DNA of 64,000 nt from Rikenellaceae bacterium (GCA_047173955.1 JBCQUO010000002.1:38-64037), one strand, 5' to 3'. Counted from the first letter of the stretch, positions 11,718-14,474 are shown. Program-made: numbers and translations. Notes: generated by a model from the sequence alone, not told the origin.

Positions 11718-14006
11718 TTAAAATGCTAGTTTAACGCCGAAGAAGACTGTACGTGGGAGTGATGGTCCGTATACGTATCCTGCATCTTTAAGCTCGCCTG
11801 TCTCGAGGTCGCTTTGGTATTGGTCTAGGATATTTTTCATTCCTGCGTGTAGCTCGATATTGAAGAGCTCAGATACTTTGAAGTCGTAAGCGAACTTAAA
11901 TCCGAAGTCCCAGAAGTTTGGTGTCCACACGTTTTCGTCGTACTCAACACATCCTGCTGCATGTTGAACGAGCATTTTGCCTGTGTAGTTTCCGAAAACA
12001 GATGCTTTGAACTTATCTGTGATGTCGTAGTTCGCGGTGATATAACCGTAGTGGTCTGGTGAGCGGAACATTGTGCGTGTACCCTCCACGTCGTCACTCC
12101 ACACCTCAGCCTCTGAGTATTGGCTCTTTTGGAATGTGTAGCCTACTTGCACCTCAAATTTGTTTACCATACCGACCTTAAGGTCTGCGCTGATACCCTT
12201 CACAACGGCACCCGAACCATTTGTACGCTCCCAGATTGTATTGTCGCCCGAGTTATCGAACTCATCTGTTTGCTCGAGGATAAATACATCATCCAGTTTG
12301 GTATAGAATCCCTCTACGAGGAGGTTAGTCTGTACGTTACCAAATGTTTTGTAGAGGTCAGCCGACACGTTGAAGCTGTTTGAGTACTCTGGCTTAAGGT
12401 CTGGGTCGAGAACGATGAGTGACACTCCACCAGCTACAGCCTCGATATGAAGATCCTCGTTGAAGGCTTGAGGTGCGCGGTAACCGCTAGAGTAGCTAGC
12501 ACGCAAACCAACGCTCTCTGATGGGCTATAACGTGCGCTCACGCGTGGTGAGAAGATCACATTGTCGATAAAGTTGTGCTTATCCAAGCGACCACCTACA
12601 ACGAAGTTCACCTTATCTGAGTTCCACTCGTTTTGCACGTAAGCACCTGCGATCTTAGTGTTTTGTTGAAGATCACGATCGTAGCCCGGCATAACATCGT
12701 GTAGGGCATTTGACGTATACTCAGCACCAAATGTAAGGTTAGCTGGAGCGATGAACCCTCCGTAGCTATATGTGTATTGACCACCTAGGACAAATGTATC
12801 GTCTGTAGTGTCGCCATAAGCTGCCTCGTCGTAATCGGCACCATAGTAGCTATCGCGGATGATCGCTTGGTACGAAGTGTTGATATTGAATTTGTGCTTG
12901 TAGTTAGGCGAGAAGTAGTCGAAGTTCAAACTTCCACCATTGATCTCGTACTCTACCTGCTCGGTGATTGCAGTCTCGTGAGGTTGCAAATCGAGGTCAT
13001 TACCACCGCGACGGTAGTCAGAGATGTGGTGATACTCGGCAGTAAGTTTTGAGTAGTTGCTTGTTTTGTAGAAACCTCTAAAACCGATAGTCTCTGTTTT
13101 GAGCATTGGGGTCTCGGTGAATCCATCTCCGTTACGGTCATACTCGCCTTTGTCGCGAAGCATACCAAAGATATATACACCTGCTTTATTGTCGTCGGTA
13201 ACGAACGAACCGTTGATTGCTGTAGTCACGTCGGTTGTCCCACCCTTAAGTATGTTTGTAGTGTTCGAGAGTGTCACGAAGCTACGAAGAGGCTCCTTGG
13301 TGATGATGTTCACCACGCCACCAATAGCGCTCGATCCAAAGAGTGCAGAGCCTCCTCCGCGGATAACCTCCACACGCTCGATCATAGCCACTGGGAGTTG
13401 CTCGATACCATAAACTCCTGCAAGAGAGCTAAAAAGTGGGCGGCTATCCAACAAGATCTGTGAGTATTGACCCTCAAGGCCGTTGATGCGCAATTGCATA
13501 GCTCCACAGTTTCCGCATGTGTTCTCGACACGCAAACCGGGCTGGAAGCTCATTGTCTCGCTGAGTGTCGACGACGCTGTGTTCTCGAACTGCTTAACCG
13601 AAGCGACATTGACGATTGCGGCCGACACTTTGCGGTTTGTCTCGTTCTTTGTCGACGACACCACAACTTGATCTACATCTATGGTCTGCTCCGTGAGTTC
13701 AAATTTACACTCTACGGTTTTGTCCTTAGCCATTGTTACGACCATCTCCTCTTTGCCATAACCCACCGATGAAGCTACGACTGTAAGTTCACCCAAAGGT
13801 ACGTTGATAAGCGTGAAGTGACCAGTTCCGTCGGTAACACAACCGACTGTTGTACCCTCGATAGAGATGGTGATGTAGGGAAGGTGCTTACCTGTGTATT
13901 TGTCCACGGCATGTCCGACGATCGACGCGTCGGTCTTTTGTGCTGCTACTGGGAGTATTGCTACTACCGCACATAGCAATAGCAAATAAAATTTTGCGAA
14001 TTTCAT
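11718..14006 (-). CDS. TonB-dependent outer-membrane receptor with CxxC-containing plug
   Basis: 762 aa; signal peptide, N-terminal extension domain, plug ENTCGNCG...RINGL and IERVEVIRGGGSALFG, C-terminal Phe. Confidence 0.93.
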   Translation of the reverse strand: MKFAKFYLLLLCAVVAILPVAAQKTDASIVGHAVDKYTGKHLPYITISIEGTTVGCVTDGTGHFTLINVPLGELTVVASSVGYGKEEMVVTMAKDKTVECKFELTEQTIDVDQVVVSSTKNETNRKVSAAIVNVASVKQFENTASSTLSETMSFQPGLRVENTCGNCGAMQLRINGLEGQYSQILLDSRPLFSSLAGVYGIEQLPVAMIERVEVIRGGGSALFGSSAIGGVVNIITKEPLRSFVTLSNTTNILKGGTTDVTTAINGSFVTDDNKAGVYIFGMLRDKGEYDRNGDGFTETPMLKTETIGFRGFYKTSNYSKLTAEYHHISDYRRGGNDLDLQPHETAITEQVEYEINGGSLNFDYFSPNYKHKFNINTSYQAIIRDSYYGADYDEAAYGDTTDDTFVLGGQYTYSYGGFIAPANLTFGAEYTSNALHDVMPGYDRDLQQNTKIAGAYVQNEWNSDKVNFVVGGRLDKHNFIDNVIFSPRVSARYSPSESVGLRASYSSGYRAPQAFNEDLHIEAVAGGVSLIVLDPDLKPEYSNSFNVSADLYKTFGNVQTNLLVEGFYTKLDDVFILEQTDEFDNSGDNTIWERTNGSGAVVKGISADLKVGMVNKFEVQVGYTFQKSQYSEAEVWSDDVEGTRTMFRSPDHYGYITANYDITDKFKASVFGNYTGKMLVQHAAGCVEYDENVWTPNFWDFGFKFAYDFKVSELFNIELHAGMKNILDQYQSDLETGELKDAGYVYGPSLPRTVFFGVKLAF

Positions 14007-14084
14007 TTAAATAAGATTTTTGTTTGAATTTTTGTTTTGGGATCGACACATTTATGGATTGCATGTGTCGAAAGTGGGGTATTA

Positions 14085-14456
14085 CTATAGAGTATATCGA
14101 GGCGGAGCGCGCGGCGATATATTTCTATATGGATCTACTTCGGGTGCCTCGAAAGTCGAGGGAACGAAGGGGTGGTACTCACCTACGGAGTATATATTAT
14201 CGAGTGAAAGGGTTTCACTTATGATAATTGTCGCATTGTTAAGATGTTGTATGAGCGTGATTTCGCTCGCTGTGTGGTCGCCATCCTCGCTCTGGGTGTG
14301 GTCGTCTCCATGGAAATGAGAGTGTATGATCGTAGCCCCATCAATCACGTGGACGTGGCTAAACATCGTTGAATTAACATAGTACAGCGACATTATCGCA
14401 AGTAAAATACTTGCAATAATCCCTTGTCTACGCACTATATTAACCTTTCCTTTCAT
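14085..14456 (-). CDS. Small exported His-rich protein ending in RAPP; candidate arrest-peptide upstream ORF of the TonB receptor
   Basis: 123 aa; basic N-terminus plus hydrophobic helix, HVHVIDGATIIHSHFHGDDH...DH, C-terminal SPRAPPRYTL; -7 box 11 nt upstream of the ATG; co-oriented with the receptor 78 nt downstream. Confidence 0.8.
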   Translation of the reverse strand: MKGKVNIVRRQGIIASILLAIMSLYYVNSTMFSHVHVIDGATIIHSHFHGDDHTQSEDGDHTASEITLIQHLNNATIIISETLSLDNIYSVGEYHPFVPSTFEAPEVDPYRNISPRAPPRYTL

Positions 14457-14466
14457 ACTTGCGCTG

Positions 14467-14474
14467 CAAAGTTA
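14467..14474 (-). promoter_or_regulatory. Bacteroidota -7 promoter box for the RAPP uORF-TonB receptor unit
   Basis: TAACTTTG on the minus strand. Confidence 0.75.

Follow-up and report, generated by a model that had tools for sequence, protein, structure and literature searches.

A histidine-rich leader family ending in RAPP or RGPP precedes TonB-dependent receptors and Czc-type pumps in Bacteroidales and is a candidate metal-responsive arrest peptide

We analysed a 64,000-nucleotide stretch of DNA from a Rikenellaceae bacterium (GCA_047173955.1 JBCQUO010000002.1:38-64037; the whole stretch is called the window below), in which a small upstream open reading frame (uORF) on the minus strand (14085–14456; 123 codons followed by TAG) precedes the gene of a TonB-dependent receptor (TBDT; 11718–14006, minus strand). 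The uORF, hereafter the leader, belongs to an unnamed Bacteroidales family with a histidine-rich sensor module and a terminal R[AG]PP motif; its sequence and its analogy with characterised leaders make it a probable regulatory arrest peptide of the RAPP/RGPP type, coupling metal status to expression of the TBDT downstream, the presumed regulated gene. An initial annotation of the region had described the open reading frame (ORF) with its own −7 box, a hydrophobic helix, a histidine cluster and RAPP (14100–14111), lying 78 nt ahead of a TonB receptor, and all of these elements were found in place.

The leader is built of five successive parts and a short tail, all encoded on the minus strand. 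A Lys/Arg-rich N-terminus is followed by a hydrophobic helix (residues 12–27; 14376–14423), recognised by hydropathy and by AlphaFold2, and by a histidine cluster (residues 34–61; 14274–14357), delimited by conservation and by a predicted beta-hairpin. The sensor module ends with a segment conserved in the family, E-L-T-L-I-x-x-L (residues 65–72; 14241–14264). A linker of fixed length and free sequence (residues 73–115; 14112–14240), hydrophilic in the window's protein (best 17-residue hydropathy window, 0.94), then leads to the putative arrest motif R116-A-P-P119 (CGC GCT CCG CCT; 14100–14111), which takes the form R[AG]PP in the family, and the tail R-Y-T-L with the TAG stop completes the ORF (14085–14099, TAG at 14087–14085). 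The translation holds histidines at positions 34, 36, 45, 47, 49, 53 and 61, plus H71, and not one cysteine among its 123 residues.

AlphaFold2, run on the family alignment (mean pLDDT 78.6), predicted a helix at residues 2–30, strands at 33–38 and 41–46, a helix at 63–93, near whose start the E-L-T-L-I-x-x-L segment lies, and a disordered tail, with pLDDT above 90 for the first helix and of 82–98 across residues 1–70. The predicted beta-hairpin sets H34 and H36 opposite H45 and H47, and H49, H53 and then H61 come after it. Hydropathy over the family reaches its maximum of 2.6 at residues 13–23; by the positive-inside rule the hydrophobic helix is predicted to be a signal-anchor or signal peptide, which would keep the N-terminus cytoplasmic and place the C-terminal part outside. 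A fold search of the leader model against AlphaFold DB clusters returned only uncharacterised look-alikes of like size, and neither Pfam nor NCBIfam gave a match to the leader ORF.

The public gene call for the leader (P0003) starts at Met22 and comprises 102 aa, so omitting 14394–14456 and with it the basic N-terminal residues and one half of the membrane helix. Sequence conservation supports the 123-aa reading over the Met22 start, as the basic N-terminus and the whole helix are kept family-wide; automated annotation from Met22 will make the family look like a soluble hypothetical protein. Comparison with the closest relative (80% amino acid identity) revealed a coding signature, with 86%, 91% and 66% identity at the first, second and third codon positions, respectively. 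In the 2.03-Mb genome to which the window belongs, R[AG]PP within the last 14 residues occurred in only 4 of 9,862 six-frame ORFs of at least 50 aa, two of which are membrane-anchored, ligand-rich and directly upstream of TBDTs; with the retention of the motif across the family, these figures lie well outside what chance would give. Furthermore, a −7 box of the Bacteroidota type, TAACTTTG (14467–14474, minus strand), read from the sequence, ends 10 nt before the leader ATG and has the same letters in the closest relative (locus L083); this short distance implies a very short 5′ leader.

Homologues of the leader were collected by searching 1.84 billion cluster representatives exhaustively with phmmer, which gave 294 homologous clusters (50% identity) at E≤1e-3; the family statistics were taken from 134 representatives of 100–135 aa that are mutually less than 50% identical. 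A separate search for loci, using one peptide pattern derived from an 18-sequence alignment, recovered 243 species-level genomes, from which 80 loci were kept, 79 of them in Bacteroidota and 78 in Bacteroidales, the exception (L060) being a short contig binned as Hyphomicrobiales. The taxa include Rikenellaceae, Alistipes, Odoribacter, Butyricimonas, Parabacteroides, Tannerellaceae, Muribaculaceae, Dysgonomonas, Paludibacteraceae and Prevotellaceae. The spread is patchy (14 of 401 genomes when the phylum was sampled evenly), and the window's genome, a Rikenellaceae-like assembly with matches in fish-gut metagenome runs, has a single copy.

R[AG]PP stands 1–9 residues before the stop in 127 of the 134 representatives, usually with a tail of 2–3 residues, and it is also present in nearly all of 76 complete genomic leader copies; position 117 is Ala in 98 representatives and Gly in 32. 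The other conserved columns are the hydrophobic helix, F32, H34, H36, G40, H45, S46, H47, H61 and the E-L-T-L-I-x-x-L segment (65–72), followed by R116, P118 and P119. H34 and H45 are invariant, F32, H36, G40, S46, H47 and H61 are each found in at least 121 of 134 representatives (at least 90%), and the family has no conserved cysteine column. Residues 75–113 are without sequence conservation, and yet the distances across them are held within narrow limits: H61 lies 54–58 residues from the motif arginine in 127/127 sequences (exactly 55 in 90) and L72 lies 43–46 residues from it, again in 127/127. The spacing from H47 to the same arginine is variable (63–88), the loop between H47 and H61 differing in length by up to 25 residues. 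Judged from these alignments, the linker behaves as a ruler whose length is kept while its sequence is free. Over 65 genomic copies, all 6 Arg, all 4 Ala and all 4 Pro codons are in use at the motif; selection therefore acts on the peptide, not on the RNA.

The gene downstream was resolvable in 68 loci. An orthologous TBDT follows in 37 of these and a CzcB/CzcA-type pump in 29; synteny is kept in 66/68, and without exception the leader is the first gene, co-oriented with its target. The conservation on which the initial annotation had staked its proposal was thus found among the homologues: RAPP/RGPP is near-invariant, the histidine cluster is invariant, its distance from the motif is fixed and a TonB receptor comes next in the 37 loci. 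The window's receptor (762 aa) has CarboxypepD_reg, Plug and barrel domains, and its 37 orthologues are 41–70% identical to it along the full length. The search for a close solved or curated relative of the receptor gave none, the nearest structures being CirA and BtuB at E 1e-21 or weaker. Clustering of 222 neighbour ORFs from receptor-type loci showed that only leader and receptor recur, so that the receptor-type unit is a two-gene module. The receptor plug carries C164-G-N-C167 (13506–13517, minus strand), whose two cysteines are invariant in 35/35 orthologues. In the 35 leader-linked receptors the plug C-x-N-C-G is invariant together with H32, H63, H520 and M678, and the plug cysteines may form a metal site or a disulfide.

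At the 29 pump loci the leader is followed by a CzcB/NccB-like adaptor, then a CusA/CzcA-family resistance-nodulation-division (RND) pump, and then an outer-membrane factor. With scores of 880–939 bits the pumps exceed the curated cut-off of 701, and their transmembrane helix 4 contains D-F-G-x3-D-G, which we take, following Nies's classification, to mark the divalent-cation type, not the Cu/Ag type. In a maximum-likelihood phylogeny of the leaders, loci of one operon type tend to group together, with 3–5 changes of type, and the conserved sensor residues are the same in receptor-linked and pump-linked subfamilies. What differs is the linker: 26 of 28 pump-type leaders (93%) but only 11 of 37 receptor-type leaders (30%) contain a 17-residue stretch of strong hydrophobicity. 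The raw difference in this second helix by context is strong (Mann–Whitney P about 1e-6), but it comprises only 3 phylogenetically independent contrasts.

The spacer between leader and receptor (78 nt; 14007–14084, minus strand) is rich in C (24%) and poor in G (6%), and its last 36 nt, ahead of the receptor ATG, are rich in A and contain no G. Folding placed in it a stem-loop of 9 bp with an 11-nt loop (14071–14043), which begins 13 nt past the stop codon and has no U-run after it. The folding z-score of the window's spacer was −6.3 relative to shuffled sequences, and the medians over receptor and pump loci were −2.5 and −2.3, respectively. The spacer shares 81.5% identity with that of the closest relative, more than the 66% of third codon positions, and in L083 one C-G pair of the stem is replaced by A-U, a compensatory change. 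For 67 loci, partition functions were used to calculate how accessible the downstream start region is with and without a 31-nt stalled-ribosome constraint; in the window the start region was already open (0.66, and 0.67 with the stalled ribosome) and the hairpin lies 19 nt beyond the stalled-ribosome footprint. No intrinsic terminator was found between leader and receptor, the predicted sites being confined to the opposite strand of the receptor ORF or to the region beyond its end, and an Rfam scan of 10900–14750 at E≤1 gave nothing in the spacer and only sub-threshold eukaryotic miRNA look-alikes in repeat cassettes. Rho is encoded in the window's genome.

As to transcripts, one RNA-library contig extends across leader and spacer into the beginning of the receptor gene, which is weak evidence, and metatranscriptome contigs, which are without strand information, show flat depth over the leader, the receptor and the neighbouring pyrB. 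A separate candidate was an imperfect inverted repeat that is centred on the RAPP codons, reaches the stop codon and folds well (14086–14129, minus strand); we rejected it as a functional element and regard it as incidental, its pairs being lost without compensation in the closest relative.

The closest counterpart in design is CruR (Bp2923) of Bordetella pertussis, a DUF2946 protein in which a CXXC motif and 45 intervening residues, conserved in number to within 1–2, are followed by RAPP three residues before the end (PMC9426467). Lengthening the CruR linker by five residues impairs copper control (Roy et al. 2022, PMC9426467), and arrest of CruR has been demonstrated by toeprint (PMC12992588). 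Both leaders are the small first gene of a TonB-receptor operon with an N-terminal export signal or N-in/C-out anchor; both join a ligand motif to RAPP through a fixed linker (45 intervening residues in CruR; 43 from L72 or 54 from H61 in the window's leader), place RAPP 3–4 residues from the stop and have a long structured intergenic spacer. The two have no sequence relation, however, and the ligands are five histidines on a predicted beta-hairpin in the window's leader and CXXC in CruR; moreover, the window's leader comes from Bacteroidota, where initiation is not led by Shine-Dalgarno pairing, its metal is probably not Cu(I), and a role of Rho would be assigned to it by analogy. Membership in DUF2946 (PF11162) was rejected: at E≤1 the profile matched neither the leader, nor 100 family members, nor anything in the whole of the leader's own genome, and CXXC/CXXXC is absent. 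The fixed distance between ligand and RAPP (H61 to Arg, 54–58 residues in 127/127) is accordingly a matter of analogous design, not homology. The suggestion in the initial annotation of a Bacteroidota analogue using His instead of CxxC holds in just this sense, that of an analogue of CruR and not a homologue, and the linkage to Czc pumps (29/68) strengthens its metal connection.

CutF of Rhodobacter capsulatus, likewise of DUF2946, has CXXXC and an EF-P-sensitive PPP, and its stall melts a stem-loop that hides the Shine-Dalgarno site (bioRxiv 10.1101/2025.02.05.636593). The likeness to our leader, in which sensing of periplasmic metal by an exported nascent chain is proposed, lies in this sensing and in the control of the next gene through stalling at a C-terminal proline motif; leaders of this kind can control detoxification or efflux genes, which matches the 29 CzcB/CzcA loci. 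Unlike CutF, the window's copy heads a receptor and not a detoxification gene, and no equivalent unmasking was detected. RAPP and RGPP are established arrest motifs (PMC12992588). The arrest peptides ApdA and ApdP, whose structures have reportedly been solved (PMC10951233), resemble the leader, as SecM does, in having RAPP/RAGP near the C-terminus and an N-terminal targeting signal; these peptides differ in that they monitor Sec-pathway activity, regulate secDF or secA and have no metal-ligand module.

A class to which the family belongs has already been published. Fujiwara, Chiba and colleagues (EMBO J 2025, PMC12992588) described, as 'TonB-related', small ORFs of Gram-negatives that carry RAPP or RGPP and a localisation signal and precede TonB receptors, and their enrichment tables list RND adaptors and CusA/CzcA pumps among the downstream genes as well. 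In the same work RAPP and RGPP were the strongest RAPP-like motifs and were about 6–7-fold depleted in Bacteroidota proteomes, while Cu-related uORFs were not found in Bacteroidota (PMC12992588). The leader has the traits of that class: a conserved terminal R[AG]PP, an N-terminal helix and a TonB receptor or metal gene next on the same strand. Members of its family are present in the source data of PMC12992588 as 'hypothetical protein'; WP_018338695.1 of Butyricimonas synergistica, for example, corresponds in contig and coordinates to our locus L024. The family as such, with its histidine module, ruler and two operon contexts, is not described in that study, and we found no paper in the literature describing this histidine-type family. 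The novelty that the initial annotation had tentatively claimed is therefore unsupported, RAPP/RGPP leaders of this class, members of this very family among them, having been in print already. The family is a well-supported new one of an already published kind (CruR, CutF, PMC12992588), not a new principle; what it adds is breadth and a new sensor chemistry, in histidines only, and not a new mechanism.

Other RAPP leaders occur in the same order. The source data of PMC12992588 contain DUF6769, another Bacteroidales family that ends in RAPP, with a transmembrane helix and His/Cys runs; Butyricimonas is one of the genera in which it precedes RND efflux adaptors. A Pfam comparison of 100 members of the window's family gave hits to 55 Pfam families at E≤1, and DUF6769 was absent from the 25 of these with the most matches, as it was from the hits of the leader itself. 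The window's own genome has a second RAPP leader (contig C101:2146-5306, also L082:647-3804), a protein of 141 aa with a transmembrane helix and many Cys and His residues that ends in L-L-R-A-P-P-V-C, 44 nt upstream of another TonB receptor and of a protein with a heavy-metal-associated (HMA) domain. That receptor is 25% identical to the window's and is without the plug CxNCG, and the 141-aa leader aligns with the window's family only at the LRAPP end. In this genome two receptors thus seem to be paired with two different sensor chemistries, and Bacteroidales have at least three unrelated RAPP leader families.

A near-invariant terminal R[AG]PP, a linker of fixed length and free sequence, a targeting helix and the first position in the operon together form the signature of a regulatory arrest peptide whose stall is read co-translationally. 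Anatomy, conservation across the family, the ruler, selection on RAPP as a peptide and linkage to a receptor or metal pump are observed; the mechanism that we infer, including the arrest itself, metal binding, topology, the metal, the polarity of control and a step involving Rho, would run as follows. The basic N-terminus and the helix would target the nascent chain to the translocon, and the His-rich hairpin module (H34, H36, H45, H47 and H61) would be threaded to the periplasmic side. The ribosome would then stall at R116-A-P118-P119, four codons before the stop. In a stall with Pro118 on the P-site tRNA, H61 would be 57 residues and L72 46 residues from the catalytic centre, distances that approximate the tunnel plus the translocon, so that by this geometry the histidine module should just have emerged on the far side. 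Metal bound by the histidines would alter folding of, or tension on, the nascent chain and hence the duration of the stall.

The sensed metal is probably a divalent transition metal, in view of the invariant histidines and the linkage to Czc-type pumps; Zn is the favoured candidate and Ni, Co, Cd and Cu are the others. While the ribosome is stalled at the end of the ORF, it would keep the C-rich, G-poor, structured spacer from Rho, and the receptor would be transcribed and translated; release of the stall by metal would shut the receptor off. For the window's locus we favour, with moderate confidence and by analogy, this CruR-like logic in which the stall shields receptor transcription from Rho, because the receptor's start region is unmasked and the composition of the spacer resembles that of rut sites. 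At pump-type loci the outcome has to be the reverse of that at receptor loci, and the hydrophobic linker segment is a possible polarity inverter, which we treat as a lead and not as a result.

Several points weigh against this interpretation. For every member of the family, arrest, metal binding and regulation are read from sequence features and from characterised relatives in function, and the experiments of PMC12992588 were made with Streptomyces peptides and CruR, none from Bacteroidota. The Rho step is suggested by two things, spacer composition and the precedent of CruR. Over the 67 loci, the stalled-ribosome footprint gave no consistent opening of the downstream start (median change about 0), and a few loci, L055, L027 and L012 among them, do show an effect on the start region; unmasking of the start site of the SecM/CutF type, which we had considered, is unsupported, the window's start region being open already. 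The −7 box implies a near-leaderless mRNA, yet the RNA-library contig reaches upstream to 14613, which makes the promoter assignment uncertain. Receptor-type loci have no recurrent metal-related neighbour. Finally, the same sensor with identical conserved residues heads an importer and an exporter, from which it follows that either polarity differs by context or the receptor does not import the sensed metal.

The last point leads to a possible, though on balance unlikely, reading in which the polarity is that of CutF: periplasmic metal would prolong the stall, metal excess would turn on receptor and pump alike, and the role of the receptor under metal stress would be to take up a metallophore, or a metal that is scarce or competing. 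The identity of the sensor residues in both subfamilies fits this reading, given that the pump must be induced by excess metal, as does the fact that the operon type changed 3–5 times on the leader tree with the sensor unchanged; furthermore, copper-induced stalling switches on a detoxification gene in CutF, a DUF2946 protein (bioRxiv 10.1101/2025.02.05.636593). The sole tested precedent with a TonB receptor, CruR, is nevertheless one of repression by metal, and the second hydrophobic linker segment, so much more frequent in pump-type (93%) than in receptor-type leaders (30%), means that the output logic could differ between the two contexts.

The leader might instead be a working small membrane metalloprotein, for instance a periplasmic metal chaperone or an accessory subunit of receptor or pump, in which RAPP slows translation so that insertion or folding is helped, or serves as a C-terminal interaction motif, without regulating anything. 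The conserved sensor module with its predicted fold (pLDDT 82–98 for residues 1–70) would suit such a protein, pump-type members resemble a stable two-helix membrane hairpin, and the released product could have a function. A linker of fixed length but free sequence, however, is hard to explain in a mature protein; the motif lies 1–9 residues from the stop and is strongly avoided in proteomes, and the leader gene comes first in the operon with a structured spacer before the next gene, all of which makes this explanation improbable. More improbable still is that the leader monitors export or membrane insertion (Sec, YidC or signal recognition particle) in the manner of SecM, MifM, ApdA and ApdP and tunes the production of large envelope machines with no metal sensing. 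Its N-terminal targeting helix and C-terminal RAPP are arranged as in known monitoring substrates, and both downstream products are envelope proteins, but five invariant or near-invariant histidines would have no role, the targets are one receptor clade and CusA/CzcA-family pumps, not Sec or YidC components, and the export signal of CruR is dispensable for regulation (PMC9426467). That the leader is a chance ORF or a mis-annotation without function, for which one could cite the missing Pfam/NCBIfam match and the different start codon of the stored gene call, is refuted by 294 homologous clusters, the coding substitution pattern and synteny at 66/68 loci.

Returning to the arrest-peptide interpretation, a tentative and rather doubtful extension would make the His-hairpin sensor with its 55-residue ruler a portable Bacteroidales cassette, repeatedly re-attached to an importer or an exporter, with the linker, and not the sensor, setting the direction of control: in most importer leaders it would be hydrophilic and exported in full, in nearly all exporter leaders it would form a second membrane helix. 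If true, the linker would act as a topological inverter of metal sensing by nascent chains. In gut and environmental Bacteroidales many classical metal-responsive regulators are missing beside these operons, and a co-translational metal-sensing leader would explain the control of the receptor clade and of the Czc-type pump. The family is a clean natural test set, in which an invariant sensor and a ruler of strict length are combined with two physiological outputs of opposite kind. It has cultured hosts in Butyricimonas, Odoribacter, Parabacteroides and Dysgonomonas, and could show how metal binding by a nascent chain lengthens or shortens arrest, and whether the ribosomes of Bacteroidota, whose initiation does not use Shine-Dalgarno pairing, are subject to RAPP arrest.

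The surroundings of the module vary. In the closest relatives, with a leader 80% identical to the window's (L083:868-2864, L084:109-525 and L085:1-1475), the module lies directly downstream of phage-like genes, those of a portal protein and a PF05105 holin, whereas the upstream neighbour of the leader in the window is the divergent pyrB; the junction that the leader-receptor module occupies may therefore be variable or mobile. Downstream of the receptor the window has a composite intergenic repeat cassette (10975–11718), and such cassettes are found at more than 10 other sites, among them 21–226, 8556–8941, 24675–24901, 27726–27951 and 58019–58161. They consist of 7-nt tandem arrays (GAGTTAG and AATGGTG types) together with palindromic units such as CGTCATTGCGGCC...GCCGCAAT and CACAGCAAGCTGTG. 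In contigs from fish-gut metagenomes and metatranscriptomes, the summed depth over the repeat stretch was hundreds-fold above that of the flanking genes.

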